Below the pieces are notes generated by a model. That model made no database searches. It saw only the letters and a list, made by a program, of their open reading frames with translations, and had not been told where the DNA came from. From Candidatus Poriferihabitaceae bacterium (GTDB lineage Bacteria; Pseudomonadota; Gammaproteobacteria; Arenicellales; Poriferihabitantaceae), in contig CBDFKV010000006.1 in the NCBI GenBank assembly GCA_965249035.1, forward strand, positions 153,609-217,608: a DNA stretch of 64,000 nt, given 5' to 3'. Shown one piece after another: positions 44,322 through 64,000 of this stretch; the stretch's first letter is position 1; every line of letters starts with the position of its first letter. Made by a program: the position numbers and the translations under genes.

Positions 44322-44324
44322 GGT

Positions 44325-46442: not shown

Positions 46443-46458
46443 AGTCCTGCCTGTTTCA

Positions 46459-47619: not shown

Positions 47620-47633
47620 GAGAGTTTCCTGTG

Positions 47634-49121: not shown

Positions 49122-49125
49122 AGGC

Positions 49126-50043
49126 TTACCTCGCACTCGGCGCGCGTTTTCGCAGCTTCAATAGATCGCGAACTTCTTGTGGCCCCATAATCTGTGCGCC
49201 CATCTGACTAACGACGGTTGCCGCTTTTTCAACCAGCTGCGCATTACTGGCCAGCTCACCTTTGCCAAGCCACAAATTATCCTCCAAACCCACCCGCACA
49301 TTACCGCCCGCGAGCATTGCTGCGGCAGCATAGGGCATTTGATTGCGACCGATAGAAAAGGCTGAGAAAGTCCAGCTTGGCGGCATGTTGTTCACCATCG
49401 CCATCAACGTATTCAGATCGTCTGGCGCACCCCAAGGAATTCCCATGCAGAGTTGAATCATAACCGGATCTTCGATAATGCCCTCTTCTGCCAATTGTTT
49501 CGCAAACCAAAGGTGGCCGGTATCAAACGCCTCAATTTCCGGACGAACCCCCAAGTCGGTCATCATCTGGCCCATTGCCCGCAGCATTGATGGTGTATTA
49601 ACCATCACATAATCGGCTTCGGCAAAATTCATGGTACCGCAATCAAGTGTTGCGATTTCCGGCAAGCAGTCGATGATAGGTGCCATACGCTCGCTTGCAC
49701 CCACCATATCGGTATTCACTTGATTCAACGGCAATGGTGCTTCAGCAGAGCCAACCACCAGATCACCACCCATTCCCGCCGTCAGGTTTAGCACTACGTC
49801 GGTGTCGCTATCACGTATTCTTTCGGTGACTTCACGGTACAAATCAAGCCTTCGGCTGGGCACTCCCGTGTCCGGATCACGCACGTGGCAATGAACCACG
49901 GCCGCACCCGCGCGCGCTGCGTCAATGGCAGCATTGGCTATTTGCTCCGGACTCCGTGGCACGTGGGGCGAGCGGTCCTGGGTTGAACCGCTACCGGTAA
50001 CAGCGCAGGTGATAAATAACTGTTTACTGGCGTGTAGTGGCAT
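49126..50043 (-). CDS. beta-keto acid cleavage enzyme (BKACE/DUF849), dehydrocarnitine cleavage enzyme-like
   Basis: 305 aa with LFITCAVTGSGS...PRSPEQIANAAIDAARAGAAVVHCHVRD, typical of BKACE TIM-barrel enzymes. Confidence 0.8.
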   Translation of the reverse strand: MPLHASKQLFITCAVTGSGSTQDRSPHVPRSPEQIANAAIDAARAGAAVVHCHVRDPDTGVPSRRLDLYREVTERIRDSDTDVVLNLTAGMGGDLVVGSAEAPLPLNQVNTDMVGASERMAPIIDCLPEIATLDCGTMNFAEADYVMVNTPSMLRAMGQMMTDLGVRPEIEAFDTGHLWFAKQLAEEGIIEDPVMIQLCMGIPWGAPDDLNTLMAMVNNMPPSWTFSAFSIGRNQMPYAAAAMLAGGNVRVGLEDNLWLGKGELASNAQLVEKAATVVSQMGAQIMGPQEVRDLLKLRKRAPSAR

Positions 50044-50135
50044 AAGAGCATTCCGAAATTATTAGCAGGGTGTATTGATAGTAGTCTCGACTTCAACGCA
50101 CATATTAACGATAATAGCCAAATGCTTAACAATTC

Positions 50136-51185
50136 ATGCCAAATCTAACGTTGTCTAACCCCTCGTTACCCCCTCGCTCTCCTCAGCCTATCAGGTCGAT
50201 TCAAGTCGGATTTTTCGTGGTCAATGGATTTTCTATGATGTGCTTTGCCAATGCAGTCGAGCCACTCAGAGCGGCCAATATGATTTTAGGTGAGCATTTG
50301 TTTCAGCGCACCATCATTACGCCAGATGGCAAGCCGGTCAGTTCTTCCAGCAACCTACACCTACTGGCCGACCAAACACCCACTCCTCACCTCCCATTAG
50401 ATTGGCTATTTGTCATCGCCAGCTACGATTATCAACGGCAGGCAGACAAACTAACGGTGTCTGCCATTCGTCAATTGAGCCGCAACGTAAAAGTGCTCGG
50501 AAGCTTAGACTGTGGCAGTTGGTTATTGGCCGAAGCGGGACTGCTGAACCATCACAGTGCAACCATCCACTGGCAGGAACTCGCGCTATTTGAAGAGCGC
50601 TTTCAGCAAATCAAGGTGAGCGATCAACGCTATGTGATTAGCAAAGCTAGAGTGAGTGCGGGTGGTGCGGTCGCCACACTCGACCTAATGCTTGAGCTGA
50701 TCCGTGAACAGTGTGGTAAGCGTTTGTTTTTCGATGTGAGAAATTTATTTCTGCATGACGTCTCACAACCCGGCAACCGTCGCCAGCAGCGCCATAGTTT
50801 GCTTGAAGACTCACCACCTAGTTTGGTTAAGGCGATCAATCTAATGGAAGCAACAATAGAAAACCCATTGCCGCTGGCCGAAATAAGCACCCAAGTTTCG
50901 ATATCATTGCGCACACTCAATCGCCTATTTAAACAACAAGTTGGCTCAAGCCCCGGACAATACTATTTGCATTTGCGCCTAAAAGCCGCACGTCGCTTAA
51001 TTGCTGAAACGCGCCTTGGAATAACCGATATTTCGATCCGCTGCGGTTTTAATTCCCTACAGGCATTTAGCCGCGCCTTCAAACTGAAATTCGGAACCTC
51101 ACCTAAAAGTGCACGCCGAGGGCGGATGATTTTGCAGAAGACAAAGCAGTTAACTCATGGGGCAACTAAAATGAGACCCTATTAG
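50136..51185 (+). CDS. GlxA-family transcriptional regulator (DJ-1/PfpI-like N-domain + AraC HTH), CdhR-like
   Basis: 349 aa with a C-terminal AraC-type HTH (ISIRCGFNSLQAFSRAFKLKFGTSP). Divergent from the carnitine operon. Confidence 0.8.
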   Translation: MPNLTLSNPSLPPRSPQPIRSIQVGFFVVNGFSMMCFANAVEPLRAANMILGEHLFQRTIITPDGKPVSSSSNLHLLADQTPTPHLPLDWLFVIASYDYQRQADKLTVSAIRQLSRNVKVLGSLDCGSWLLAEAGLLNHHSATIHWQELALFEERFQQIKVSDQRYVISKARVSAGGAVATLDLMLELIREQCGKRLFFDVRNLFLHDVSQPGNRRQQRHSLLEDSPPSLVKAINLMEATIENPLPLAEISTQVSISLRTLNRLFKQQVGSSPGQYYLHLRLKAARRLIAETRLGITDISIRCGFNSLQAFSRAFKLKFGTSPKSARRGRMILQKTKQLTHGATKMRPY

Positions 51186-51197
51186 TTATCGATGCAC

Positions 51198-52715
51198 TCA
51201 GGGTTCGCTTCTGGGAAAGCGCTGGCTCTCTTCCAGCACATTTAAATCCATATGGTTGCGCATATAGCGTTCCGATGCGTGCTGAACGGGTTCAAATTCC
51301 CACGGAGTATATTTGCCTTGCGTAAGCGCTTCATACACTAACCAGCGCCGCGCTTGTGACTCACGCACCTCGGCATCAAAAGTGCCCAAATCCCAATAGG
51401 CTAATGATTTCTGTTTCAAGTCAGCCCTGACTTTGGCATGATTGGGATACTCAGCCAAGTTGGTTTTTTCTTGTGGGTCCGTTTGCAGATCAAACAGTTG
51501 ATCAGGATCCAGCTGGCAGCGATTATATTTCCAACGGCCCTCGCGCAGCGATACCATGGGGGCATAAGATGCCTCAGCGGCGTATTCCATGCGCACGGGC
51601 GCTGTCCTCTTGCCACCCTGCCCTAAAGGCAGCAAGCTTTCCCCTTCACTCCACGGTGCGATTTCATCCGCGGGTATATCGGCCAGATCAGCCAGTGTTG
51701 GCACGACGTCAATCGTTGAGACTGGGTCGGTAACCAATCCCGGCGCCATTTGTGGCGCGGAGATCATCAATGGCACCCGTGCAGAACCCTCAAAAAAGCT
51801 CATCTTAAACCACAACCCTTTTTCACCCAGCATGTCACCGTGATCAGCCACAAAGACAATACTGGTGTTTTGTGTTTGACGCGTCTCTTCCAAAACCTTA
51901 AGTATTTTCCCTATCTTTTCATCAAGATACGAGATGTTTGCAAAATAAGCCTGACGTGCGCGGCGTACCTGCTTAGCAGTAATTTTAAAACGACTATAAT
52001 CATTGGCAAGCATGATACGCTGCGAATGAGGATCATAGTCTTTGAAGTCGTAAGCACCTTCTTGTGGTTTCAAAAAAGCACAATCATCATACAACCCCCA
52101 AAACTGACGACGCGCGACATAAGGATCATGTGGATGCGTAAAGCTAACCGTCAGCGACCACGGTCGCTCATCTAAACCGCGGCTCAGCTGGTAAATCTTC
52201 TGGACCGCAGAAGCAGCTACCTCATCGTCAAATTCCAGCTGGTTAGTAATCTCCGCAACACCTGCGTCCGTCACCGAAGCCATGTTGTGATACCACCAAT
52301 CGATTCGTTCTCCGGGTTTACGATAATCGGGAGTCCAACCAAAATCAGCGGGATAAATATCGGTGGTTAAGCGCTCTTCAAAGCCGTGTAACTGATCGGG
52401 GCCAACGAAATGCATCTTACCGGCTAGACAGGTGTAATACCCAGCGCGACGTAGATGATGCGCGTAAGTCGGCAAGTCGGCAGAAAACTCGGCAGCGTTG
52501 TCATAGACTTTGGTGCGTGAAGGCAACTGCCCAGTCATGAAACTCGCCCGTGATGGCGTGCACAACGGCGAGGCGGTATAGGCATTCTGAAAGCGCGTAG
52601 ACTTGGCTGCCAGGGCCTTGAGATGGGGTGTATGTAACCATTCAGCCGGGCCGTCAGGAAACAAGGTGCCGTTCAACTGGTCAACCATAATAACCAGGAT
52701 GTTAGGCTTGCGCAT
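51198..52715 (-). CDS. betC: choline-O-sulfate sulfatase
   Basis: Sulfatase signature SPLCTPSRASFMTG (Cys-type formylglycine motif), N-terminal KPNILVIMVDQL, about 505 aa, resembling BetC. Start taken at ATG 52715; the ORF-track start at 52730 is a TTG. Confidence 0.8.
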   Translation of the reverse strand: MRKPNILVIMVDQLNGTLFPDGPAEWLHTPHLKALAAKSTRFQNAYTASPLCTPSRASFMTGQLPSRTKVYDNAAEFSADLPTYAHHLRRAGYYTCLAGKMHFVGPDQLHGFEERLTTDIYPADFGWTPDYRKPGERIDWWYHNMASVTDAGVAEITNQLEFDDEVAASAVQKIYQLSRGLDERPWSLTVSFTHPHDPYVARRQFWGLYDDCAFLKPQEGAYDFKDYDPHSQRIMLANDYSRFKITAKQVRRARQAYFANISYLDEKIGKILKVLEETRQTQNTSIVFVADHGDMLGEKGLWFKMSFFEGSARVPLMISAPQMAPGLVTDPVSTIDVVPTLADLADIPADEIAPWSEGESLLPLGQGGKRTAPVRMEYAAEASYAPMVSLREGRWKYNRCQLDPDQLFDLQTDPQEKTNLAEYPNHAKVRADLKQKSLAYWDLGTFDAEVRESQARRWLVYEALTQGKYTPWEFEPVQHASERYMRNHMDLNVLEESQRFPRSEP

Positions 52716-52953
52716 GGTCAAATCATCCAATCTAAGTGTTGGTCGCAGTCAGCCTTTCAGTTGATCAACCAATTGCTTCAATGCGGCGATTTCAGAACTC
52801 ATTTCCGGTTGAACGGGATCAAGTTCAGATAAAATTTGCTGCCCAAGCTCTTTTCTGGAAAACATATTCATAACCGACTGGATCCGGTGAGTCTATAGCT
52901 CCGGAGGCCGTCGAAAACATACGTTGCGGTGAATGATTGTAAAATATTTACCC

Positions 52954-54612
52954 TTATATATCTGTTGCACCCTCACCGTTATCTACCCCGCGCTCTTCAA
53001 GCAAGGTAGTCAGCCATTCTGGATCCATTTCGGGCACAGACGAGAGCAATAAATCGGTATAGGGCTTATGAGGTGGTGTAAACATATCGTCTTTAGGTCC
53101 TTGCTCAATGATTTTTCCTTGTTGCATCACGACCACGTAATCCGCGATTGAGCGCACAGTTGCAAGATCATGCGTAATAAACATGTAGGCCAGATCCAGA
53201 TCATCCTGCAAATCGCTCAGCAAGCGCAAGATGCCTTCTGCGACAAGTTGATCCAGAGCGCTGGTGACCTCATCGCAGACGATAAAAGTGGGTTCCGCAG
53301 CGAGCGTGCGCGCGATGCCGATTCTCTGCTTCTGACCACCTGACAACTCGCCAGGATAGCGGTGGTAGTATTTCTTGGGTTCAAGCTCGATCAAATCAAG
53401 CAATTCATCAACGCGTTTTTTGAGCGCTGTGCCTTTAAGCCCACTATAAAAAGCAGCGGGCCTGCCAATGATTTCACCAATACGTGTTTTTGGGTTCAGG
53501 GCGGTATCTGCCATTTGGTAAATCATTTGCGCCTGTCGCAATTGATCTTTTGTTCGATCCTGATAACGCGGCGGTAACTCTTTGCCATTAAATGATACGG
53601 TGCCTTTCATTTGCGGCAGTAAACCTGTTATGACACGTGCCGCTGTCGATTTACCCGAACCGGATTCGCCCACCACTGCAACTGTGCGCCCGGCATAGAT
53701 ATCAAATGAAATATCTTTGAGGATTAATATTTCGCCATCATAGGATGCATCCACATTCTTCATTGAGACAACGGGTACAGCATCCGCGGGTGGCGGTGGC
53801 TTTTGTTCGCGTCTGAAATCGCGAACGGCCCAGAGTGATTTGGTGTAGTCTTTTTTGGGTGAATCGAGCATGGTTTTAGTATCCGCTGTCTCCACTTCAT
53901 CACCACGCAACAGCACTTTTATCCGATCGGCCATTTGCGCTACCACCGCAAGATCGTGCGTAATATAAATCGCCGCCGTATTAAATTGATCAACAATATC
54001 ACGGATTGCAGCTAACACTTCAATCTGTGTCGTTACATCCAGTGCGGTAGTCGGCTCGTCAAATATGATTAAATCTGGTCGACAGCTCATTGCCATCGCA
54101 GTCATCGCGCGTTGTAATTGCCCGCCTGAGACCTGATGTGGATATCGAAAACCTATTTCCTCGGGGTTGGGTAATCGTAAGCGACGATACAGATCAATCG
54201 CATCTTCTTGGCTTTCCGTCCGTTTACGTATTCGATACTGAACGGGTGCCTCGGTGTGCTGGTCGATCAGGCGATGCGAGGGATTGAAAGAAGCCGCTGC
54301 AGATTGTGCGACGTAGGCAATACGTGAGCTTCGGAGCGCCCTTAAATCTGCTCGTGGTGTTGAGGTTAACTCAAGGCCATCGAACTCCACACTACCGCCT
54401 GATATCTTACAGCCGTCACGTGCAAAACCCATTGCCGCCAGTCCAATGGTTGATTTGCCAGCACCCGACTCACCAATCAAGCCGAGCACTTCTCCTCGGT
54501 GTAGGTCTAAATCAATACCGTGAACGATTTCAAACCACTTATCATCAGCGAAGGCTTCCAGACGTAAGCCTCTAATTTTCAGTAAAATGTCTTTGTCGTC
54601 TTTTATTGCCAT
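52954..54612 (-). CDS. ABC transporter ATP-binding protein with duplicated ATPase domains (peptide/opine/nickel family)
   Basis: 552 aa with two Walker A motifs (GESGAGKST, GESGSGKST) and two signature motifs (VSGGQLQR, LSGGQKQR). Confidence 0.85.
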   Translation of the reverse strand: MAIKDDKDILLKIRGLRLEAFADDKWFEIVHGIDLDLHRGEVLGLIGESGAGKSTIGLAAMGFARDGCKISGGSVEFDGLELTSTPRADLRALRSSRIAYVAQSAAASFNPSHRLIDQHTEAPVQYRIRKRTESQEDAIDLYRRLRLPNPEEIGFRYPHQVSGGQLQRAMTAMAMSCRPDLIIFDEPTTALDVTTQIEVLAAIRDIVDQFNTAAIYITHDLAVVAQMADRIKVLLRGDEVETADTKTMLDSPKKDYTKSLWAVRDFRREQKPPPPADAVPVVSMKNVDASYDGEILILKDISFDIYAGRTVAVVGESGSGKSTAARVITGLLPQMKGTVSFNGKELPPRYQDRTKDQLRQAQMIYQMADTALNPKTRIGEIIGRPAAFYSGLKGTALKKRVDELLDLIELEPKKYYHRYPGELSGGQKQRIGIARTLAAEPTFIVCDEVTSALDQLVAEGILRLLSDLQDDLDLAYMFITHDLATVRSIADYVVVMQQGKIIEQGPKDDMFTPPHKPYTDLLLSSVPEMDPEWLTTLLEERGVDNGEGATDI

Positions 54613-54631
54613 TGCGAATTCCTCTCCTAAA

Positions 54632-55693
54632 TTAGTTTTTCAATCCAGAGGATCGATAAAGCATCCAGTCAACCACAAAGTTAACTGAAACAGTTAGCAA
54701 TGCGATTGCGCCCGCGGGAATGAGGGGAACGATCTCGCCAAATGAAATAAGGGTTGAGTTTTCTCTCACCATCGACCCCCAATCAGCGGTTGGCGGTTGC
54801 AGACCAAGGCCCAGAAATGACAGGCCGGATATGAGTAGAAATACGAAACAAAACCGCAAGCCAAATTCTGCGATTAAAGGCGCTGCGGCGTTGGGCAATA
54901 TTTCACGTAGAATTAAATGCCAGGTTTTTTCGCCACGCAATTTTGCCGCTTCAATATAGTCCATTACGACAATATTTCCCGCTACCGCCCGAGCTAACCT
55001 GAATACAGGTGGCACGTATAAAAATGCAATCACCAATGTTAGCACGATAATATTTGTGCCAAAAATACTCAACAATAACAGCGAGAAAATCAGGCTCGGA
55101 ATTGACATGAACACGTCTACCGTGCGCGACAATGCCTGATCCATAAATCCACCTTTAGTCGCTGCCATCAATCCCAGACTGGTGCCTGCGAAAAAGGCTA
55201 GAATAGTCGTTACCAATGCTAAGCCAACTGTATTGCGCGCGCCGTAAACCAAGCGGCTAAACATATCCCGCCCGAGTTGGTCACCTCCAAGCAACATAAC
55301 ATCATCTGCGGGTGCAAAAGCAGAGCCAACCACTTCAGCCTGCCCAAACGGTGCGATGATCGGCGCAAAAACGGCTGCGATCATATAAATCATGATCATA
55401 AACAAGCCAAACGTCGCGGTCAGCGGTGCATTTCTAACCGCTTTGGAGCCTCCTCTCGGCAACACAATGGTCAGAAACTCTCTAAAACTATACGCGATTC
55501 CCGCTGCAGCGGCGATAATGCCCGCTGCAATAGTGATGCGCCACAAGGCAGCCTCACCGCCAATAATCCCCACGATAAAGGAGACTAGTGTCAGTGAAAA
55601 CAGCAGTAAAAATGCGGAGCGGTTTTGGTAATAAGCTGCTACGCACGATGCGCCAATAATTAAAGCGAAATATCCAATAACAAAATAACTCAT
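54632..55693 (-). CDS. ABC transporter permease (DppC/OppC-like) with N-terminal extension
   Basis: 353 aa, polytopic, with an EAA-type loop (...YIEAAKLRGEKTWHLILREILPNAAAPLI). Confidence 0.8.
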   Translation of the reverse strand: MSYFVIGYFALIIGASCVAAYYQNRSAFLLLFSLTLVSFIVGIIGGEAALWRITIAAGIIAAAAGIAYSFREFLTIVLPRGGSKAVRNAPLTATFGLFMIMIYMIAAVFAPIIAPFGQAEVVGSAFAPADDVMLLGGDQLGRDMFSRLVYGARNTVGLALVTTILAFFAGTSLGLMAATKGGFMDQALSRTVDVFMSIPSLIFSLLLLSIFGTNIIVLTLVIAFLYVPPVFRLARAVAGNIVVMDYIEAAKLRGEKTWHLILREILPNAAAPLIAEFGLRFCFVFLLISGLSFLGLGLQPPTADWGSMVRENSTLISFGEIVPLIPAGAIALLTVSVNFVVDWMLYRSSGLKN

Positions 55694-55703
55694 GATTCGC
55701 TCC

Positions 55704-56660
55704 TTATTTGGGGTGACGTAGACGTGGATTGGTCAGTATCGATCCAATATCTGCGATCAGATTCAGAACGATAAAAGTGGCGGCAAAAATCAAACAGCAG
55801 GCTGTCACCACCGCAAAATCGCGCTTTGATACGCTGTCCACTAATAGCTGCCCAATACCCGGGTAGACAAAAACCACTTCCACCAGTACCACGCCGGTGA
55901 TCAAATATGCGAGATTCAATGCCACCACATTAATGACGGGGGCTAGAGCGTTTGGTAGGGCATGATGGGTAATAATTTTTCCTTGCGGAACACCTTTTAA
56001 TCTCGCCATTTCAATATACGGAGAAGCAAGTAAACTGATGATGGCCGCTCGTGTCATGCGCATCATATGTGCTGTCACCACCAAAACCAGCGTTAAAGCT
56101 GGCAGGAACATTCGGTGCAGTTTCTCGGTGAGTCCCATGTCATCTGAGATACTGGCAATGGCTGGGAACCAAGGGTTCTTGACCGCCAAAAATAATACCA
56201 GGATATAGCCGACGAAAAACTCTGGCGAGGAAATTGAAGTTAATGTGACGACGTTCGCCACTCTGTCAAAAATTGAGTTTCGAAACAAGGCCGCCAAGAT
56301 CCCGAGGCCGATTGCAATGGGTACGGCTATTATTGCAGCATAAATAGCCAGGAACAGCGTATTCGCGAACCTTTTGCTGATGAGTTCAACCACCGGTTTA
56401 CCACTGATCAGAGAGGTTCCAAAATTACCTGTGACTGCATTCCCCAGCCATTCAAAATAGCGCACTGGCGCAGATCGATCTAAGCCCAGCTCGTTTCGAA
56501 GCGCTGCGACCGATTCTTCTGTGGCCGATTGACCGAGCACGGCTTGTGCCAAATCCCCTGGTAGCAGTTCAACTGCACCGAAGATGATAATCGACACCAC
56601 CAGCAGCGTAACTAGGCCTAATCCAAGCCGCTTAATAATAATTTGCAGAATATCGTTCAT
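55704..56660 (-). CDS. ABC transporter permease (DppB/OppB-like)
   Basis: 318 aa with ...YIEMARLKGVPQGKIITHHALPNALAPVI. Confidence 0.85.
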   Translation of the reverse strand: MNDILQIIIKRLGLGLVTLLVVSIIIFGAVELLPGDLAQAVLGQSATEESVAALRNELGLDRSAPVRYFEWLGNAVTGNFGTSLISGKPVVELISKRFANTLFLAIYAAIIAVPIAIGLGILAALFRNSIFDRVANVVTLTSISSPEFFVGYILVLFLAVKNPWFPAIASISDDMGLTEKLHRMFLPALTLVLVVTAHMMRMTRAAIISLLASPYIEMARLKGVPQGKIITHHALPNALAPVINVVALNLAYLITGVVLVEVVFVYPGIGQLLVDSVSKRDFAVVTACCLIFAATFIVLNLIADIGSILTNPRLRHPK

Positions 56661-56809
56661 GTTGTTCCTCTCGTGACAAGCGGTGCGGTTCGAGGTCCGC
56701 TTGATTTGGCAGGCTCAAAATACACCATCGCAATATTGAATATAGTGCGACGGTGTAGTGTGGCAGAGCGACTATATTTCATGCGCTCGACGAACTTACT
56801 ATTTGACTA

Positions 56810-58420
56810 TTAAGACGTCATCCACCAACGGTGATAGGCGCGCCCGCCATCATTTTCCCAGGAAGATGCAACGCTATCGCCGTGTGCAATTTTACTGTTA
56901 CGTGCATATACGTAATTTCTAAACAGCGGAATAATTGTGCCGCCATCATCGTGTGACAACTGGCACATTTCGTTATACATTTCAGCACGCACCCCTTCAT
57001 CGAGTTCGGCTTTTGCTTGTATCAGAAGCTCATTAAAGCGCTCGTTTTCCCAATGCGATTCATTCCATTCTGCGCCTTTTTTGTACGCCAACGTGAACAT
57101 ATTATCGGGAGTTGGGCGTGCGCCCCAGGTTACAGTCACAAATGGTTTCTTAAGCCAAACATCTGACCAGTAACCGTCATTTGGCTCACGTACTGCCTTC
57201 AAATCAATTCCCGCTGCTTTAGCGTGCTCAGAATACAAAACGCACATGTCTACAGCACCAGACATCAGTGAATCCGCGGTCGACAACTTGACGCTAAGCT
57301 TTTCCATTCCAGCCTGTTTCAGATGAAATTTTGCTTTGTCCGGGTCATAGGAACGCTGCGCTATGTCCGGCGCATAGGGCATGTTAGGCGAAACATGGTA
57401 ATCATTACCAATGGTTGCCGCGCCAAATCTGATTTTTTCAATAATATCTTCACGATTGATCGCATACTTCAGCGCGAGGCGCACATCGACATTATCATAC
57501 GGCGCAGTATCACAAAACATCGGCATAGTGATCGCCGCACCACTCGGTACATTGTCTATCAAGATATCTGGCTTACGTTCTAATAGTGACATGGTTTTTA
57601 AATCAACCGTTGTAATGCCATCTACATCACCGGTTATTAAGGCGGCTTGCATTGCATTTGGATCATTCAAAATTTTCAACTGGACCGCGTCAAAATAGGC
57701 GCCTTCACGATGCCAACCATCGTGGCGGACCAAATCGGTTTGAACGCCAGGCTCACGATTTTCAATTTTATAGGGGCCTGCGCCAATACCGCTTTCCCAC
57801 TCAATTCCGCCATCTTCTTTAGCGGGCAGCATCACCAGATGATAATCAGTCATGATCCAGGGCAGATCAGCCGTACCCTGAGAGAGTTCGATAATAATTG
57901 TGTGGTCGCCATCGGCTTTGATATCGGTGATATCCGCGACCAATGGTGCAGCGGCTGACCCTACTGATTCTTCTCGATGATAGTTCAAGGAGGCGATCGC
58001 ATCTTTGGCGGTAAACTTCCTGCCATCGTGGAAGGTTGCATTTTTATTCAGATGAAAGGTCCACATTTTGGCATCTGGTGACGCTTCCCAGGAATCTGCC
58101 ATATCCGGGCCCAGGCCATTTTCAGCGGTAATCTCAGTCAGAAAGCTGCGTATTGCATGCGATTCCTGGATCTCTTGTGTGCTTTGGAACTTGGCCGGAT
58201 CAAGTGTATCGCTGGTATTTCCATCATGTATACCCGCGCGAAAGGTTCCGCCTCTTTGTGGTGTTGCTGCAGCGACGTCAGTCGTCCATAGGGTTGATGC
58301 AGATGTCGCCGTTATGCCCGCCGCGACGGCATAATTCATAAATTGCCGGCGGCTCATTTTGCCACATTTTGCCTCGCTTGCAATTTTATCGATGATGGGG
58401 GAATGGCTTTTACTCGTCAT
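56810..58420 (-). CDS. ABC transporter substrate-binding protein, family 5, with Tat-type signal
   Basis: 536 aa with the twin-arginine leader MSRRQFMNYAVAAGITATSAS. Size and layout match peptide/opine-binding proteins. Confidence 0.85.
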   Translation of the reverse strand: MTSKSHSPIIDKIASEAKCGKMSRRQFMNYAVAAGITATSASTLWTTDVAAATPQRGGTFRAGIHDGNTSDTLDPAKFQSTQEIQESHAIRSFLTEITAENGLGPDMADSWEASPDAKMWTFHLNKNATFHDGRKFTAKDAIASLNYHREESVGSAAAPLVADITDIKADGDHTIIIELSQGTADLPWIMTDYHLVMLPAKEDGGIEWESGIGAGPYKIENREPGVQTDLVRHDGWHREGAYFDAVQLKILNDPNAMQAALITGDVDGITTVDLKTMSLLERKPDILIDNVPSGAAITMPMFCDTAPYDNVDVRLALKYAINREDIIEKIRFGAATIGNDYHVSPNMPYAPDIAQRSYDPDKAKFHLKQAGMEKLSVKLSTADSLMSGAVDMCVLYSEHAKAAGIDLKAVREPNDGYWSDVWLKKPFVTVTWGARPTPDNMFTLAYKKGAEWNESHWENERFNELLIQAKAELDEGVRAEMYNEMCQLSHDDGGTIIPLFRNYVYARNSKIAHGDSVASSWENDGGRAYHRWWMTS

Positions 58421-58642
58421 GCTGATCTCCTTGAATGAATGATTGTGTGAATATTATTGTTATGTCGCTAACGAAAACTTACTCTTCAGCGGCACATAAT
58501 TATAAATTTAGAGTACCAGTACCGCTAATGATAAGCAAATTTCCTCTTTTTTCGCCTAAACACCCTAATATTTGACGCTAAGGTGCAGTCTTATGTCGTA
58601 ATGAGGTTAACTACTTCGAATGCTAGGTTAAGCTATTCTTGA

Positions 58643-59323
58643 TTACGCAACCTCCAAGTCTATTTCAAGCGGGTTTGGTCTAACAAACATTTCGTGATCG
58701 CTTGACAGATTCCAGTGATCTAGCGCGAGCTGTTTTGCTCTCTCGGGATCCTGTTGTTCAATCGCGTCAATAAACTGGTCGTGATGATCACTCGCTGTAT
58801 ATAAGCGCTCTTGCATCTCAGAGTTATTTGCACGAAAAAAGGTGTGCGCAATTCTCGCGTGGTCTATTGAAAGGCGTTGCAGGCTGGGCCACAGATACTG
58901 ATTATCCGCCATTTCACCCATGATCAGGTGGAAGTTACTATTGTGATAGACCATCGAATCAGGATCACGGGCCAATACCGCCTTACAAAATTGGCGTTGT
59001 GATGCCTTTAGGGCAGTAAGCTGTTCCGAGCTACGGTTTTCAGCTGCCAGTACAGCGATCGATGCGTAGACAGGAGGTGCCGTACGGAAAAAATCACGCA
59101 GCATTTTGTAGTCCATTGATGACACATGCGCACCGCGGTTTTGCGCTATTTCCACATAACCTTCACCCGCCATGCGGCGCAAGACTTCTCTGACGGGTGT
59201 GCGTGAAAGGTTGTATCGTTTACCAAGTCTGGTCTCATCCAGTTTCTCTCCCGGCTGCAACTCCATGGTAAGAATCTGGCGCTTTAGCGCACGATATAAA
59301 TCGTCTTTGTTTTGTTTGCTCAT
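58643..59323 (-). CDS. GntR-family transcriptional regulator (FadR/FCD subfamily)
   Basis: 226 aa with an N-terminal winged HTH (LGKRYNLSRTPVREVLRRMAGEGYVEI) and an all-helical C-terminal domain. Confidence 0.85.
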   Translation of the reverse strand: MSKQNKDDLYRALKRQILTMELQPGEKLDETRLGKRYNLSRTPVREVLRRMAGEGYVEIAQNRGAHVSSMDYKMLRDFFRTAPPVYASIAVLAAENRSSEQLTALKASQRQFCKAVLARDPDSMVYHNSNFHLIMGEMADNQYLWPSLQRLSIDHARIAHTFFRANNSEMQERLYTASDHHDQFIDAIEQQDPERAKQLALDHWNLSSDHEMFVRPNPLEIDLEVA

Positions 59324-59399
59324 GGTTCATTTCCGCACACCATAAAAGAGATTTATGTACGGGGATATGTTTTGATTACGCTATTGTTGCACAGCGCAA

Positions 59400-59413
59400 A
59401 ATTGTATACAATT
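59400..59413. promoter_or_regulatory. candidate GntR operator (14-bp perfect palindrome)
   Basis: aattgtatacaatt, with core TTGTATACAA fitting the GntR/FadR-type GT-N-AC half-site arrangement. Lies in the divergent gap between the GntR gene and the DapA-like gene, 46 nt upstream of ATG 59459. Confidence 0.5.
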
Positions 59414-59458
59414 ATTATACATAATGCAAATCAAGCATCTTATCCAAATTATACCGAC

Positions 59459-60373
59459 ATGCAATTTGAAGGAATTTACACCCCAGTAATCACGCCGTTT
59501 AAAGATGATTTCTCGATCAATCGTGATCGCCTGGCAGAGGTAATTGAACATCTCATCAATGCAGGGGTTCACGGCATCATCCTGGCAGGTACAACTGGCG
59601 AGTACTACGCACAAACAAGCAAAGAACGTATTGAACTGATGTCGTTCTGCCATTCTTTAACTAAGGGCCATTTGCCGCTGATTATCGGTACAGGTGCGAT
59701 TCGCACGGAAGACAGTATCGAATTTGCTTTAGCCGCGAAAAAAGTCGGCGCAGATGCTTTGTTAATAGCCACCCCACCCTATGCCTACCCTACTGCTCGC
59801 GAGATTGCCCTGCATGCACTAGCGATTGATCGTGCCGTTAATCTACCCGTGATGTTGTATAACTATCCGGGCAGGATGAGTGTCAATATGGACGAAGAAA
59901 CACTTGATCGATTGGGACGTAGCCCTAATTTTTGCGCGATCAAAGAAAGCTCAGGTGATATAAACCGTTTGCATATGCTAGCGCGTGATTATCCGCATAT
60001 ACAACTGGCGTGTGGCATGGACGATCAGGCCCTGGAATTTTTTGCCTGGGGCGCACGGTCCTGGGTGTGCGCAGGTTCAAACTTCGCGCCGCAAGCACAT
60101 CTCGCACTGTATCAATCCTGCGTGGTAGAGGGAGACTTTATTAAGGGTCGACGCATCATGTCGGCCATGATGCCACTTATGCGGGTACTGGAACAGGGGG
60201 GCAAATTTATCCAATGCATAAAACACGGCATGACGCTGCGTGGTTTTGAAGCTGGGCCACCAAGAAAACCTCTGCAACCACTGAATAAAGATGATAAACG
60301 TCAGCTGGCGGAAGTGATTCGTACGCTAGATTCAGCAATAGAGAAGATCACCAGCGAGGAAGAACATGCCTGA
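59459..60373 (+). CDS. DapA/DHDPS-family lyase (pyrroline-hydroxy-carboxylate deaminase or keto-deoxy-acid dehydratase/aldolase type)
   Basis: Start moved to ATG 59459 (MQFEGIYTPVITPF...). Motifs GTTGEY and the Schiff-base lysine context CAIKESSG. 304 aa. Confidence 0.8.
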   Translation: MQFEGIYTPVITPFKDDFSINRDRLAEVIEHLINAGVHGIILAGTTGEYYAQTSKERIELMSFCHSLTKGHLPLIIGTGAIRTEDSIEFALAAKKVGADALLIATPPYAYPTAREIALHALAIDRAVNLPVMLYNYPGRMSVNMDEETLDRLGRSPNFCAIKESSGDINRLHMLARDYPHIQLACGMDDQALEFFAWGARSWVCAGSNFAPQAHLALYQSCVVEGDFIKGRRIMSAMMPLMRVLEQGGKFIQCIKHGMTLRGFEAGPPRKPLQPLNKDDKRQLAEVIRTLDSAIEKITSEEEHA

Positions 60374-61874
60374 TTTACTAAGCCTTGACGAATACCGAGC
60401 AATCGCGAATCAGATTGACTTTCCTCGTACTGCCTTTATCGATGGAAAATTCTGTGCCGGACAGGGCGGAAAAATACCCAGTATCAATCCGGCAACGGGA
60501 GAAACTATTTGCGAGATTTCAGCATGTAATGCAAAAGATGTTGACAAAGCTGTCTTAAAAGCACGCACAGCATTTGATCAAGGGCATTGGTCACAAAAAC
60601 ATCCCAGCGAGCGAAAAGCAGTACTGATTCGCCTCTGTAAATTGATCACCCGCAACCGCCGGGAACTCGCCGTCATGGAAAGTCTCGATAGCGGTAAGCC
60701 AATACGCGATTGTGAATTGATTGACATCCCCGAGACAATTCACACGATCAAATGGCATGCCGAATTGATTGATAAAATTTACGATCAAACCGCACCTGGC
60801 GGCCAGGATTCAATTGCCATGATTGTGCGTGAACCTATTGGTGTGGTTGGCGCGGTGTTGCCGTGGAACTTTCCATTGTTAATGCTGGCTTGGAAAATCG
60901 GGCCAGCGTTGGCAGCGGGCAATTCCGTCATCGTCAAACCTGCTGAGCAAACCTCATTAACCGCCCTCAAAATAGCCGAGTTGGCAATGGAAGCAGGTTT
61001 GCCACGCAGCATTTTACAGATATTGCCGGGAGATGGGCCTTCGGTCGGCGAGCCATTGGGATTACACCCTGATGTAGACATGGTGAGCTTTACCGGCTCG
61101 ACTGAAACCGGCAGACGTTTCTTGCGTTATGCGGCCGACAGCAACTTGAAGAGAATCGTCCTTGAATGCGGAGGTAAAAACCCTGCGGTGGTGTTGGATG
61201 ATGCAGAAGAATTAGATTTAGTGGCAAAACACATTGTGAACGCGGCATTCTGGAATATGGGTGAGAACTGTTCTGCCAATTCGCGTTTGATCGTCCATGA
61301 AGCGATCAAGGCGCCTTTACTTGAGCGTATTCTGGCGCGCATGCGTGACTGGAAAACCGGCGACCCACTCGACCCTGCTAATCATCTTGGTGCGCTGATT
61401 GACGGTCAACATTGCAGTAAAGTAGCCAGCTTTCTGGAAAACAAGAGTAAAGAAATAAAAACACTCGCTGGCGGAACAGTACAAGGGAATTTTGTTGAGC
61501 CAACCGTGCTTGACGAAGTTCCAAGAGACAGTAAACTGGCCACAGAAGAGATTTTCGGCCCGGTTCTGTCGGTGATTAGCGTGTCCTCATTAGAGCAGGC
61601 GATTGAAATTGCCAATGATTCAAAATACGGCTTAAATGCCAGCGTATTCAGCGCTAATATCAAATGCGCATTGAATGCTGCACGCGCCATTCGTGCAGGC
61701 ACGATAACGATTAATTGTTATGGCGAAGGGGATATTTCCACCCCATTTGGTGGCTATAAACAATCGGGCTTTGGTGGGCGCGACAACGGCATTTATGCGC
61801 ATGATCAATACACAGAATTAAAAACTATTTGGGTTGACCTAACTGATCCAGCCAGTGAAGACAAGGTTCTATGA
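60366..61874 (+). CDS. NAD(P)+ aldehyde dehydrogenase
   Basis: 502 aa with ALDH motifs VLECGGKNP (catalytic Cys region) and EEIFGPVLSV. Overlaps the upstream gene by 8 nt. Confidence 0.85.
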   Translation: MPDLLSLDEYRAIANQIDFPRTAFIDGKFCAGQGGKIPSINPATGETICEISACNAKDVDKAVLKARTAFDQGHWSQKHPSERKAVLIRLCKLITRNRRELAVMESLDSGKPIRDCELIDIPETIHTIKWHAELIDKIYDQTAPGGQDSIAMIVREPIGVVGAVLPWNFPLLMLAWKIGPALAAGNSVIVKPAEQTSLTALKIAELAMEAGLPRSILQILPGDGPSVGEPLGLHPDVDMVSFTGSTETGRRFLRYAADSNLKRIVLECGGKNPAVVLDDAEELDLVAKHIVNAAFWNMGENCSANSRLIVHEAIKAPLLERILARMRDWKTGDPLDPANHLGALIDGQHCSKVASFLENKSKEIKTLAGGTVQGNFVEPTVLDEVPRDSKLATEEIFGPVLSVISVSSLEQAIEIANDSKYGLNASVFSANIKCALNAARAIRAGTITINCYGEGDISTPFGGYKQSGFGGRDNGIYAHDQYTELKTIWVDLTDPASEDKVL

Positions 61875-63439
61875 GCTCAGCCATCACATCACAAGCTGAA
61901 GCGCCCAATGGGCGTCGAGGTGGTCGTAGTAGCCGTCGCAAAGCCCGATCAGGCCTCCAACAAAAGATGTTGCCCGCACTAAAACGAAACCTGCCGCTGA
62001 TCGAACCCATGACGCCTGATCAAATTGAGCGCATCGACAATGCCTCAATGGATATTCTTGAAAATGTTGGGATCGTATTCCGCGATGAAATTGCACTGGC
62101 AGATTGGAAAAAAGTGGGCGCCAAAATAAAGGGAGATCGCGTGTATCTCGATCGCGGCTTAGTAAAAACGCTGATTACCAGCCTGCCTTCTGAATTCACC
62201 TTTCACGCGCGCAACCCCGAGAATAACTTGCCCTTTGGTGGCCCGCATTCAATTTTCGTACCGATGACAGGTGCACCTTTTCTGCGTGATCTTGAGGATA
62301 AACGGCGTAATCCAACGCTGGATGATCTGGCCATGTTTCATAAGCTCGCGCATATGTCACCGGCCTTACACTCCTCAGCGCATCACATTGTTGAACCCAT
62401 GGATCACGTAATATCACACCGACATTTGCGCATCACCTATTCGTCGATGAAGTATTCTGACAAGACCTTTATGGGTATGACGACTACGCCCAAGAATGCC
62501 GAAGATGTGATTGATATGTGCCGTATTTTATTTGGTGCTGAGTACATCCAAAATCACCCGGTTGTGACCGGTAATTGTAATTGTAACTCACCGTTAATCT
62601 GGGATGAAACCATGCTCGGCGCGATGCGTGCTTTTTGCAAGGCTAATCAACCAGTTTTGTGCTCACCATTCGTACTCGGAGGCGCGAACACGCCAGCATC
62701 TGTCCCGGCTGCGGTTGCCCAGCTTAATGCCGAAGCACTTTCAGCGCTGGCTTACACACAGCTCATTAACAAAGGCTGCCCAGCGATTTATGGGCATTAC
62801 CTTTCCACTGTGTCAATGGCGAGTGGCGCTCCGATGGCCGGCACTCCTGAAATCAGTTTGATGAATTTTATGATTGGCCAGATGGCACGCCATTATGCCA
62901 TTCCCTGGAGAACATCAAACACGCTGGGTGGCGCCAAAACTTTTGATGCACAAGCAGGTTATGAAAGTGCTAGCACTATGATGGCAGTGATGATGTCCGG
63001 GGCGAATTATATCTGGCATTCTGCTGGCTGGAACGAAGCGGGGATGCATTGTTCGGTGGCAAAATTTGTAGTCGATGCAGAACAATGCGCGATGGCGTAT
63101 CGAATGACTGAAGGTATTCGCTGGGATGATTTTGATGAGTGTATTGCCGCCGTTGGGGACATTGGTCCAGGCGGTCATTTCTTGGGGCATGCACATACGC
63201 TCGCTAATTTCCAGGAAGCTTTTTTTATGCCCAAGTTGTTTGATAATAACTCGATCGAGCAGTGGGTTGCTGACGGCTCTCAAGATATCACTGAGCGTGC
63301 TTTAAAGCACGCAAAGCGCTTATTAGAAGAATACGAGGAACCCAAATTGGATGAAGCCGTGGACGAGGAATTGTTGGCTTATATCGCCAAACGCGAGCAC
63401 GAGATTCCAGCCGTTGAAGCGCTAAATGACAAGCACTGA
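61871..63439 (+). CDS. MttB-superfamily (trimethylamine methyltransferase-like) protein, non-pyrrolysine type
   Basis: 522 aa in one uninterrupted frame with no in-frame TAG. Family-typical stretches: ...IERIDNASMDILENVGIVF..., ...PGGHFLGHAHTL... ATGA overlap with the ALDH stop. Confidence 0.8.
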   Translation: MSSAITSQAEAPNGRRGGRSSRRKARSGLQQKMLPALKRNLPLIEPMTPDQIERIDNASMDILENVGIVFRDEIALADWKKVGAKIKGDRVYLDRGLVKTLITSLPSEFTFHARNPENNLPFGGPHSIFVPMTGAPFLRDLEDKRRNPTLDDLAMFHKLAHMSPALHSSAHHIVEPMDHVISHRHLRITYSSMKYSDKTFMGMTTTPKNAEDVIDMCRILFGAEYIQNHPVVTGNCNCNSPLIWDETMLGAMRAFCKANQPVLCSPFVLGGANTPASVPAAVAQLNAEALSALAYTQLINKGCPAIYGHYLSTVSMASGAPMAGTPEISLMNFMIGQMARHYAIPWRTSNTLGGAKTFDAQAGYESASTMMAVMMSGANYIWHSAGWNEAGMHCSVAKFVVDAEQCAMAYRMTEGIRWDDFDECIAAVGDIGPGGHFLGHAHTLANFQEAFFMPKLFDNNSIEQWVADGSQDITERALKHAKRLLEEYEEPKLDEAVDEELLAYIAKREHEIPAVEALNDKH

Positions 63440-63471
63440 GGCGCACGAGTAAAGCGCTGTTGCCACCCACC

Positions 63472-64000
63472 GTGAAAGTAAAAAAGTTACCCAAAGATCC
63501 CGGCGACACGGGCTGGAACGGGATTTTATCCCCCCAAAGGTACTACCCTGAACTTGATACATCGCAAACTTGCGATAACTTAATTATCGGCGCAGGTTTT
63601 GCGGGTCTGGCTGCTGCGCGTCGAATATCACAACTTGGCCCTTTTGATAAAACCATCATTGTTGAGGCTAAACGCATCGCTCAAGGCCCGGCTGGACGCA
63701 ATACTGGTTTTATGATTGATTTGCCGCATGATCTCGCGTCCGATGATTATCGTGGCGAAACTCAACGTGATCTAAATCATATTAAATTTAACCGGGCAGG
63801 CATCTCTTTCGCCATCGAGGCGGCAAAAGAATATGGTATGTCTGGCGAAGCTTTTGCTATGAGCGGAAAAATTAACGCCGCAGCCAGCGGAAAGGGCATA
63901 CAAAACAATAAGGACTATGCAGCACACTTAAAGGCCATGAACGAAGCACACAATTTTCTAGATGAAAAAGAAATGCAGGCCATCACTGGATCGACATATT
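63472..64000 (+). CDS. FAD-dependent oxidoreductase (DAO family), N-terminal part (runs off the window end)
   Basis: Open frame to the window end from GTG 63472 (an in-frame TTG at 63460 is also possible). Dinucleotide-binding motif DNLIIGAGFAGLAAARR. Absent from the ORF track because there is no stop in the window. Confidence 0.65.
   Translation, partial: MKVKKLPKDPGDTGWNGILSPQRYYPELDTSQTCDNLIIGAGFAGLAAARRISQLGPFDKTIIVEAKRIAQGPAGRNTGFMIDLPHDLASDDYRGETQRDLNHIKFNRAGISFAIEAAKEYGMSGEAFAMSGKINAAASGKGIQNNKDYAAHLKAMNEAHNFLDEKEMQAITGSTY

Follow-up and report, generated by a model that had tools for sequence, protein, structure and literature searches.

A gene cluster (hpb) for the catabolism of hydroxyproline betaine and proline betaine was reportedly described by Zhao et al. 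in 2013. In the published hpb pathway of Pelagibaca bermudensis, Paracoccus denitrificans and Cereibacter (Rhodobacter) sphaeroides, demethylation is carried out by the Rieske enzymes HpbB1C1 and HpbB2C2 and the flavoenzyme HpbA (Kumar et al., PMC3950512). In aerobic Ruegeria pomeroyi, proteins of the MttB superfamily (pfam06253) work with the corrinoid protein MtgC and the bidirectional tetrahydrofolate (THF) methyltransferase MtgD, which are common to a split methionine synthase and encoded at unlinked loci; at most seven pfam06253 paralogues occur per genome, probably for other methylated substrates, and the glycine betaine enzyme MtgB is the sole MttB-family function demonstrated in aerobes so far (Mausz et al. 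2025, PMC12478193). Here we analyse a stretch of 64,000 nucleotides from a Candidatus Poriferihabitaceae bacterium (contig CBDFKV010000006.1, positions 153,609 to 217,608; hereafter the window), in which the gene of an MttB-family protein stands among genes for a dihydrodipicolinate synthase (DHDPS)-family enzyme, an aldehyde dehydrogenase (ALDH), a DAO-family flavoprotein and a GntR regulator, next to an ATP-binding cassette (ABC) importer. From the comparisons reported below, the locus probably holds, in its minimal form, a widespread cassette for the breakdown of a hydroxylated cyclic betaine; 4-hydroxyproline betaine (betonicine or turicine) is the likeliest candidate for this substrate and proline betaine a further possible one. 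Its degradation would begin with MttB-type demethylation, unlike the Rieske-dependent demethylation of the published hpb pathway, and in the variant that we favour would continue by retro-aldol cleavage.

The gene combination is conserved well beyond this genome. We fetched 80 loci around MttB orthologues (75–80% identical) from GTDB representatives, 47 of which have at least 6 kb on each side of the MttB gene. Within this well-flanked set, DHDPS-like and DAO genes are present in 39 loci (83%), and ALDH and GntR genes in 38 of 47 each. The cassette was found in about 60 of the 80 independent genome loci, and the arrangement is therefore far beyond chance. Most often the genes follow each other as GntR-DHDPS-ALDH-MttB-DAO; the MttB gene of Roseobacters is transcribed divergently from DAO-ALDH-DHDPS-GntR. 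The minimal form also occurs elsewhere, for example in locus L082. MttB homologues that are 75–90% identical number thousands in marine and soil Alpha- and Gammaproteobacteria, including Roseobacters, Hyphomicrobiales, Granulosicoccaceae and related groups, and the closest one with a contig (L084, 91%) comes from a metagenome-assembled genome labelled Methylococcales. Some loci hold further genes: one resembling pyrroline-5-carboxylate reductase (F420_oxidored/NAD_binding_2, about 253 aa) lies between ALDH and MttB in L059, L068 and L071 (Tateyamaria, Roseovarius), and a gene of the MmgE/PrpD family lies near the cassette in L081 (968–2347), L083 (5275–6645) and L078, with a second MttB-family gene directly upstream of it in L081.

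The trio of DAO, DHDPS-like and ALDH genes with a GntR gene is shared by the window and the hpb clusters (PMC3950512), and loci orthologous to the window cassette carry, in addition, the HpbD epimerase and the ProX-type HpbHIJ transporter of those clusters. An HpbD-like enolase-superfamily gene was found between MttB and DAO in 13 of the 80 loci. Scores against PDB entries 4E8G, 4IZG and 4J1O run from 583 bits for the L081 protein to 671 bits for that of C. sphaeroides, and against 2PMQ and 4H2H they are 476–525 bits; according to Kumar et al. (PMC3950512), these entries represent HpbD of P. denitrificans and the proline betaine racemase of P. bermudensis. A pair of short-chain dehydrogenase/reductase (SDR) genes is present in 25/80 loci; 6/80 encode a betaine-binding protein of the ProX type (440 bits against a cut-off of 215) together with its ABC partners. 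The first-pass annotation had noted that the known aerobic hydroxyproline-betaine route uses an epimerase and Rieske-type demethylases instead of an MttB-type enzyme. The published route does use them, but genes for an HpbB1C1/Stc2-like Rieske oxygenase and a ferredoxin reductase adjoin the MttB orthologue on its upstream side in L031, L042 and L078. In four other loci (L015, L033, L046, L080), the gene of an HpbA/StcD-type FMN/Pyr_redox enzyme is found near the cassette. The presence of Rieske and MttB genes in one cluster suggests that the two enzymes differ in isomer or substrate preference, or that oxygen-dependent and oxygen-independent enzymes are redundant.

The most informative locus is on plasmid pB of C. 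sphaeroides 2.4.1. It comprises MttB (76.5% identical to the window protein), the enolase and two SDR genes; divergent DAO, ALDH, DHDPS and GntR genes; and proV, proW, proX and a GlxA gene. The lower genes of the window are 67% (DHDPS-like), 64% (ALDH) and 42% (DAO fragment) identical to those of this cluster. In C. sphaeroides, hpbD is RSP_4007 and hpbH, hpbI and hpbJ are RSP_4000, RSP_3999 and RSP_3998 (PMC3950512). By gene count, the cluster thus extends from RSP_4008 (MttB) to RSP_3998 and includes both hpbD and hpbHIJ. The C. sphaeroides HpbD was shown biochemically to epimerise trans-4-hydroxyproline betaine and to racemise proline betaine, and proline betaine induces hpbHIJ 7.5–9-fold and hpbD with hpbHIJ 7.5–11-fold (PMC3950512). 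The enolase of the pB cluster retains the P. denitrificans HpbD residues K164, D194, E219, D242, K266 and D293. In Sinorhizobium meliloti AK57, a 77% identical MttB orthologue likewise sits in a proXWV-GntR-DHDPS-ALDH-DAO-MttB-HpbD cluster. In CP130046.1 its cassette genes are broken into several pieces by frameshifts, probably through assembly errors, and the PLSDB replicon labels of this strain (CP090106.1, CP130046.1) look shifted, since the "pSymB" of 3.72 Mb is chromosome-sized and carries the mtgBCDE region and the "pSymA" has 1.72 Mb. The proposal that MttB-type demethylation of proline or hydroxyproline betaine feeds the DAO, DHDPS-like and ALDH enzymes is thus supported by orthologous cassettes with HpbD, by ProX-type transporters and by the C. 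sphaeroides cluster. Neither literature searches nor the work of Kumar et al. (PMC3950512), where the words methyltransferase, MttB and corrinoid are absent, yielded an account of an MttB-family demethylase encoded in an hpb-type cluster. Searches joining hydroxyproline betaine or proline betaine with MttB or trimethylamine methyltransferase and epimerase also returned nothing.

The window MttB is a full-length, non-pyrrolysine member of PF06253, with residues 15–513 covering profile positions 1–500 of 500 (706.6 bits). Its open reading frame (ORF) of 522 codons is uninterrupted and therefore free of in-frame UAG, in agreement with the first-pass annotation. A pyrrolysine-containing trimethylamine methyltransferase was considered and rejected: the protein scores 282 bits on the corresponding model (TIGR02369, cut-off 525) and only 101 bits against the pyrrolysine MttB structure 7XCL, and the ORF runs through. 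It scores 482 bits against 4YYC, the S. meliloti MtgB (43% identical), and 360 bits against the Desulfitobacterium hafniense MtgB (2QNE/9YCE). 4YYC matches at 100% an S. meliloti gene located beside those for a cobalamin-binding protein, DUF1638, methylenetetrahydrofolate reductase, methyl-THF:cobalamin methyltransferase, an ASKHA (RamA-like) protein and bmt; this neighbourhood corresponds to the mtgBCDE region of S. meliloti described by Mausz et al. (PMC12478193).

In MtgB, R312 and H348 contact the carboxylate of glycine betaine, and Y97 and F356 contact its quaternary nitrogen by cation-pi interactions; the Arg is kept in all characterised betaine-specific members, whereas the aromatic pair is not (MtpB, MtcB, MtyB) (Picking et al. 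2026, PMC13080624). The window protein shares the carboxylate-binding residues (R347 and H383) with these enzymes, but has T133 and G391 where MtgB has Y97 and F356, and all four residues are invariant in 74 orthologues. At the positions of the aromatic pair, 4YYC has Tyr and Gly, and a 41% identical paralogue in L051 keeps the Tyr. This pocket pattern agrees with a substrate that is an acidic quaternary amine but not glycine betaine, and we predict from it and from the gene context that the window MttB is a (hydroxy)proline betaine:corrinoid methyltransferase. In S. meliloti AK57, MtgB (the 4YYC match) is encoded in an mtgC/mtgD/metF2/DUF1638/ASKHA/bmt cluster, and the 77% orthologue of the window MttB is encoded separately. 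The clade is therefore a paralogue distinct from MtgB, and an identification of the window protein as MtgB was rejected on this ground and on that of the invariant Thr at the Tyr97 position.

Genes for a B12-binding protein, a pterin-binding methyltransferase, an enolase-type epimerase or a Rieske oxygenase are absent from the whole window by tblastn and Pfam, in line with the earlier remark that a corrinoid-protein gene and an epimerase are absent up to its end. With the S. meliloti MtgC as tblastn query, no MtgC homologue was found in the window or in the loci fetched up to that search; among the same loci, an MtgD match occurs in L002 only and a MetF2 match in L078 only. Two statements of the first-pass annotation must be revised here. 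It had placed the activity of non-pyrrolysine MttB homologues in anaerobes, which is outdated, as aerobic marine bacteria use pfam06253 proteins with MtgC and MtgD; and it had called the methyl acceptor unknown, for which a published solution exists in a shared corrinoid MtgC and an MtgD encoded elsewhere (PMC12478193). The missing corrinoid gene is therefore no puzzle, since aerobic marine bacteria use shared, unlinked MtgC and MtgD. By analogy, the use in trans of such a shared pair would be the parsimonious reading, which for this genome is an assumption. The locus resembles the R. pomeroyi system in that no genes for corrinoid and THF components were found in the window beside that of the methyltransferase; it differs in that the MttB gene lies within an amino-acid-type lower pathway and not with dimethylglycine/sarcosine or one-carbon genes.

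This lower pathway had been compared with that of hydroxyproline, and the comparison holds for the protein families but not for orthology. As canonical reference we used the hyp cluster on pSymB of S. meliloti 1021 (GntR, the DHDPS-like HypD, Ldh_2, the ALDH HypH, a family-3 ABC system and the DAO HypO), which we identified as such from its gene order. The window enzymes are 25% (DHDPS-like/HypD) and 23% (ALDH/HypH) identical to it and the regulator 34% (GntR/HypR), and the DAO gave no match with HypO. The locus thus shares three protein families and a GntR gene with the canonical hydroxyproline pathway (S. meliloti hypR-hypD-hypS-hypH-hypMNPQ-hypO-hypRE; Pseudomonas aeruginosa lhp), but it is without the hydroxyproline epimerase, the Ldh_2 reductase and the family-3 binding protein, and its enzymes are not orthologous to HypO, HypD and HypH.

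Their orthologues are instead found in P. aeruginosa. The ALDH scores 705.6 bits against PDB 7UYY, all other structures giving at most 487 bits, and a P. aeruginosa ALDH, which we take to be PA4189, matches 7UYY at 100% identity. PA4189 is reported, according to the title of a Biochem J article of 2023, to be an aminoacetaldehyde dehydrogenase. On NCBIfam models the window ALDH scores 507 bits (PuuC), 436 bits (betaine aldehyde dehydrogenase, BADH) and 330 bits (GucD-type 2-ketoglutarate semialdehyde dehydrogenase, KGSADH), all under the cut-offs. The P. aeruginosa locus (L087, CP152075.1, 2097–9491) consists of a GlxA/AraC regulator, divergent genes for GntR, DAO, a major facilitator superfamily (MFS) transporter, DHDPS-like and ALDH proteins, and then a FAD_binding_3 gene. 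By gene count these are PA4184 (the GlxA-type gene) to PA4189, and the FAD_binding_3 gene would presumably be PA4190 (pqsL). PA4184 is SouR, a sarcosine-responsive activator (PMC8151288), and its adjacency hints that the end product of the PA4185–PA4189 module is sarcosine or glycine. The window proteins are 57% (DHDPS-like/PA4188), 62% (ALDH/PA4189) and 45% (GntR/PA4185) identical to those of P. aeruginosa, and the DAO 37% to PA4186 (measured on the full-length L082 orthologue). The two loci thus share orthologous GntR, DAO, DHDPS-like and ALDH genes, which in P. aeruginosa form one operon with a GlxA-type regulator beside it; the P. aeruginosa operon differs by the absence of MttB and HpbD and by an MFS gene in place of the ABC transporter. 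Because the lower enzymes match PA4186, PA4188 and PA4189 and not HypO, HypD and HypH, the lower route may be retro-aldol and not lead to 2-ketoglutarate. A literature search combining aminoacetaldehyde, hydroxyproline and aldolase gave nothing.

The DHDPS-like protein remains under every NCBIfam cut-off (DapA 198 against 206 bits, KdgD 121 against 374), and identification as KdgD or as a true DapA was rejected accordingly. For the DAO we used the full-length orthologue of L082, which is 53% identical to the window fragment; the full length in relatives is about 444 aa. No solved homologue was found below 1e-10 with this query, and its resemblance to the models of the AmaA pipecolate oxidase and of Phn oxidoreductase is only weak.

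These observations can be assembled into a scheme. The substrate would be imported by the Dpp-like ABC system with its Tat-exported family-5 binding protein, a role that would be played by ProVWX/HpbHIJ in other genomes. MttB would move one N-methyl group from the quaternary amine to corrinoid Co(I), leaving N-methyl-4-hydroxyproline, and the corrinoid protein, a methylcobalamin:THF methyltransferase and a reactivase (MtgC/MtgD/RamA type) would be encoded elsewhere and shared. The DAO protein would oxidise the C2–N bond, either while the remaining methyl group is still on the nitrogen or once a second demethylation has taken place elsewhere, to a 4-hydroxy-2-oxo acid or its cyclic iminium form. 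The DHDPS-family enzyme would form a Schiff base at the 2-oxo group (C2) and process this 4-hydroxy-2-oxo acid, and the ALDH would oxidise the aldehyde released. In the favoured retro-aldol variant, the products would be pyruvate and (N-methyl)aminoacetaldehyde, the latter being oxidised to sarcosine or glycine; in the classical variant, deamination would give 2-ketoglutarate semialdehyde and then 2-ketoglutarate, as backed by the historical assignment in the hpb cluster. We favour the former for three reasons: the activity reported for the ALDH orthologue, the position of souR next to the P. aeruginosa genes, and a need for no more than one methyltransferase and one oxidase on this route. Where present, HpbD (acting at C2) and the SDR pair (acting at C4 via a 4-oxo intermediate) would funnel other stereoisomers into the route.

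In its most explicit form, which we put forward only tentatively, the scheme is a four-enzyme route: the cobalamin-dependent MttB would demethylate hydroxyproline betaine, a PuuB/AmaA-like flavoprotein would open the ring of N-methyl-4-hydroxyproline, a DHDPS-family retro-aldolase would yield pyruvate and N-methylaminoacetaldehyde, and the ALDH would convert the latter to sarcosine. Such a route would dispense with a second demethylase, an epimerase and a deaminase, and its demethylation would be oxygen-free. Its C2–N oxidation would resemble, by analogy, that of nicotine-type oxidases on N-methylpyrrolidines, and its lower module would account for the orphan PA4185–PA4189 operon beside souR.

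Several observations weigh against the interpretation of the window as a cassette for hydroxyproline betaine. Neither HpbD, the SDR pair, ProX, a Rieske oxygenase nor HpbA is encoded in the window, which ends 540 bp into the DAO gene, and a family-5 ABC importer is used, all of which sets it apart from the described hpb clusters. As these diagnostic accessory genes are absent, the substrate call rests on orthologues at 75–80% identity. The binding protein belongs to family 5 and is not a betaine-type ProX, and it is without an informative solved relative. Two orthologous cassettes (L064 and L084) consist of GntR, DHDPS-like, MttB and DAO genes without an ALDH. Kumar et al. ascribe all demethylation of proline betaine and hydroxyproline betaine to Rieske enzymes, and their P. 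denitrificans double Rieske mutant fails to grow on proline betaine (PMC3950512). An orthologue of the MttB clade was not found on Paracoccus plasmids, the only Paracoccus replicons searched. Since neither the window nor the loci fetched up to the MtgC search have a linked corrinoid gene, the cobalamin dependence of the window MttB is assumed from its family membership. Finally, the retro-aldol variant derives from 62% identity to one enzyme, whose activity we take from the title of the report, and 2-ketoglutarate semialdehyde may never have been tried on PA4189.

The classical hydroxyproline chemistry, which Zhao et al. (reportedly) and Kumar et al. assumed for hpb clusters, is the alternative closest to our interpretation. 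MttB would act on hydroxyproline betaine and an HpbA-type enzyme elsewhere would remove the second methyl group; the DAO would be a cis-4-hydroxy-D-proline oxidase, the DHDPS-like protein a pyrroline-4-hydroxy-2-carboxylate deaminase and the ALDH a 2-ketoglutarate semialdehyde dehydrogenase, with 2-ketoglutarate as the end product. At the level of families (DAO, DHDPS, ALDH) the match to the known bacterial hydroxyproline route is exact, and the cassette accompanies HpbD, which forms the D-configured cis isomer (PMC3950512). HpbA/StcD-like genes are found in four loci, and the hpbA of C. sphaeroides is unlinked yet induced (PMC3950512). On the other hand, most loci hold a single flavin oxidase without a second demethylase, the S. 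meliloti HypO, HypD and HypH are not orthologous to the window enzymes (no match, 25% and 23%), and the ALDH scores lower on the GucD-type KGSADH model than on the PuuC and BADH models, while being 62% identical to an enzyme reported, by title, as an aminoacetaldehyde dehydrogenase. We therefore regard the 2-ketoglutarate route as rather unlikely, though worth keeping in view. A change of substrate within the same general scheme appears less likely still: the cassette would serve 3-hydroxyproline betaine, 4-hydroxypipecolate betaine, N-methyl-hydroxyproline or an acyclic gamma-hydroxy betaine, and its linkage to HpbD in some genomes would point to a substrate range that is related without being the same. 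Such a view gains from the restriction of HpbD to 13 of 80 loci and its absence from the window, from an SBP5-type transporter whose ligand is not evident from its relatives, from the weak resemblance of the DAO to a pipecolate oxidase model, and from the SDR pair and the pyrroline-5-carboxylate-reductase-like gene of some loci, which may point to additional stereo- or redox chemistry. Whether or not HpbD accompanies them, MttB orthologues are nevertheless 75–80% identical and their pocket positions do not vary, and the characterised enzymes of these clusters act only on hydroxyproline betaine and proline betaine.

Two further readings would detach the MttB gene or the lower enzymes from proline-type betaines. 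The window MttB could be a plain MtgB that acts on imported or locally produced glycine betaine and only happens to lie among the other genes. In favour of this, no aerobic MttB-family function except that of MtgB has been demonstrated to date (PMC12478193), the protein keeps the Arg and His that bind the carboxylate, and carnitine and choline-sulfate genes at 43.5–52.7 kb yield glycine betaine precursors. We consider this very improbable in view of the invariant Thr at the Tyr97 position of the clade, where both 4YYC and the 41% L051 paralogue have Tyr, and of the separate MtgB that S. meliloti AK57 retains in its mtgBCDE cluster; the 4-nt overlap with the ALDH gene and the 83% co-occurrence with DHDPS-like and DAO genes across classes also favour a single pathway. 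Sugar-acid catabolism through a KdgD-type DHDPS homologue, the scenario by which the first-pass annotation would have been refuted, has hardly any credit left. Pairs of DHDPS-family and ALDH genes are known in glucarate and pentonate routes, and GntR/FCD regulators are typical of such operons; but the KdgD models give 121–132 bits against cut-offs of 278–374, a sugar-acid dehydratase and transporter are absent, and the partners of the cassette are betaine transporters, HpbD, an MttB-family protein and an amine oxidase.

The gene families of the locus were checked with the ORF list and with Pfam and NCBIfam scans. All nine genes of the cassette and the importer were recovered at the places and in the families given by the first-pass annotation (Table 1), and only details of their arrangement differ. 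The GntR gene, described as lying between two divergent units, is divergent from the DHDPS operon but reads in the same direction as the ABC genes. Overlaps between successive plus-strand genes, also described, exist for DHDPS/ALDH (8 nt) and ALDH/MttB (4 nt, ATGA), whereas MttB and DAO do not overlap: the DAO gene starts at TTG 63460 or GTG 63472, 20–32 nt past the MttB stop. The start of the DHDPS-like gene is likely ATG 59459, which gives 304 aa (homologues have 301–303 aa), and not the TTG 59312 of the mechanical ORF. No riboswitch or other Rfam RNA except one tRNA was found in the window, and no cobalamin riboswitch near the cassette. This tRNA-Ser(GGA), at 1439–1528, is the sole RNA found in the window by Rfam or ARAGORN. 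Promoter and terminator consensus scans performed no better than on shuffled sequence.

Table 1. Features of the cassette, of the adjoining importer and of the preceding genes; positions are those of the window.
Feature	Position	Strand	Evidence or remark
Fused double ATPase (two nucleotide-binding domains), Dpp/Opp-type ABC importer, 552 aa	52954-54612	minus	two ABC_tran stretches + oligo_HPY
ABC permease, DppC/NikC-like, 353 aa	54632-55693	minus	BPD_transp_1, 107 bits
ABC permease, DppB/NikB-like, 318 aa	55704-56660	minus	BPD_transp_1 + BPD_transp_1_N
Family-5 solute-binding protein, SRRQF twin-arginine-type leader	56810-58420	minus	SBP_bac_5, 240 bits
GntR/FCD regulator	58643-59323	minus	GntR + FCD domains
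Palindrome TTGTATACAA, candidate GntR operator	59402-59411	unstranded	divergent gntR/DHDPS promoter region
DHDPS/NAL-family class I Schiff-base enzyme, PA4188-like, 304 aa	59459-60373	plus	PF00701, 202.6 bits
Aldehyde dehydrogenase, PA4189 type, 502 aa	60366-61874	plus	Aldedh, 546 bits
Non-pyrrolysine MttB-superfamily methyltransferase, 522 aa	61871-63439	plus	PF06253 (MTTB), 706.6 bits
DAO-family FAD amine oxidoreductase, N-terminal 180 codons, ended by window edge	63460-64000	plus	PF01266, 42.8 bits on fragment
Enoyl-CoA hydratase	43536-44321		
ADP-forming CoA ligase	44325-46577		
Acyl-CoA dehydrogenase	46459-47619		
3-hydroxyacyl-CoA dehydrogenase fused to thioesterase, carnitine-dehydrogenase-like	47634-49136		
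BKACE enzyme	49126-50043		
GlxA/AraC regulator	50136-51185		
Choline sulfatase	51198-52730		

The transporter has the components of a Dpp/Opp family-5 importer: an SBP_bac_5 protein, two BPD_transp_1 permeases and an oligo_HPY ATPase in which both ATPases are fused (552 aa). A Dpp-like transporter stands beside the cassette in L004, L038, L047 and L060 also. Orthologues of the ATPase (78%) adjoin the cassette in L038 and L060, those of the DppC/NikC-like permease (68–73%) occur in L038, L047 and L060, and those of the DppB/NikB-like permease (75–77%) in L047 and L060; homologues of the binding protein are next to the cassette in L004, L047 and L060 (56–68%) and in three Anderseniella loci (about 38%). 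The best NCBIfam models for the ATPase are of the GsiA and DppD/F type, every one under its cut-off. The binding protein reaches no NCBIfam equivalog, and its best solved homologue, at just 85 bits, is uninformative on the ligand. Its N-terminus reads GKMSRRQFMNYAVAAGITATSA, in which MSRRQFM followed by a hydrophobic stretch is a motif of the twin-arginine type, so that the SRRQF leader announced for this protein is directly visible in the translation. Comparison of MSRRQFMNYAVAAGITATSASTLW, seen in the same translation, with the twin-arginine translocation (Tat) pattern S/T-R-R-x-F-L-K plus hydrophobic stretch leads to a motif-based prediction of Tat export.

The GntR protein of the window has 45–46% identity with its counterparts in the C. 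sphaeroides cassette and in the PA4185 cassette of P. aeruginosa. The sequence TTGTATACAA is a perfect palindrome with one occurrence in the whole window, and its general form, TTGT-N2-ACAA, is found about -61 to -66 from the DHDPS start in the divergent loci L005, L060 and L084. Upstream of gntR, TTGT-N2-ACAA is present in 16 of 59 loci, with an expectation of about 0.04 per 205 bp. TTGTATACAA is therefore a plausible candidate for the operator of the GntR/FCD protein, which would probably act through it as a repressor of both the transporter and the enzyme unit.

The genes that precede the importer (43536–52730) look like a set for the utilisation of gamma-butyrobetaine or carnitine and of choline-O-sulfate. 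Such genes are typical of betaine use, and the MttB cassette thus sits in a betaine-catabolic island. The remaining window holds glycan-biosynthesis genes with insertion sequence (IS) elements, and housekeeping genes. Two IS1595-like copies, 100% identical and inverted (3698–4735 and 14283–15320), bound about 9.5 kb of the glycan-biosynthesis region; between them lie identical direct copies of an IS630-like (DDE_3) element (5282 to about 6400 and 10426 to about 11540) and genes for glycosyltransferases and sulfotransferases. The layout resembles that of a composite transposon.

Taken with the orthologous loci, the window plausibly represents a conserved cassette of marine and soil bacteria in which a B12-type MttB-family demethylase stands in place of the oxygen-dependent one, a variant not yet described. 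Marine and rhizosphere bacteria obtain carbon, nitrogen and methyl groups from the turnover of proline-type betaines, which are common osmolytes of algae, plants and invertebrates. If our interpretation is correct, hydroxyproline betaine or proline betaine would be the first substrate beyond glycine betaine to be assigned among the many pfam06253 paralogues of aerobic bacteria, and the B12 dependence of osmolyte cycling proposed by Mausz et al. (PMC12478193) would be extended. An oxygen-free demethylase alongside the Rieske enzymes would also be relevant to facultative anaerobes and to phototrophs such as C. sphaeroides. The hpb pathway, the aerobic MtgBCD system and the orphan PA4189 operon, so far three separate literatures, are joined in one testable scheme, for which C. 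sphaeroides 2.4.1, Phaeobacter and Leisingera with their plasmids, and P. aeruginosa are tractable hosts.

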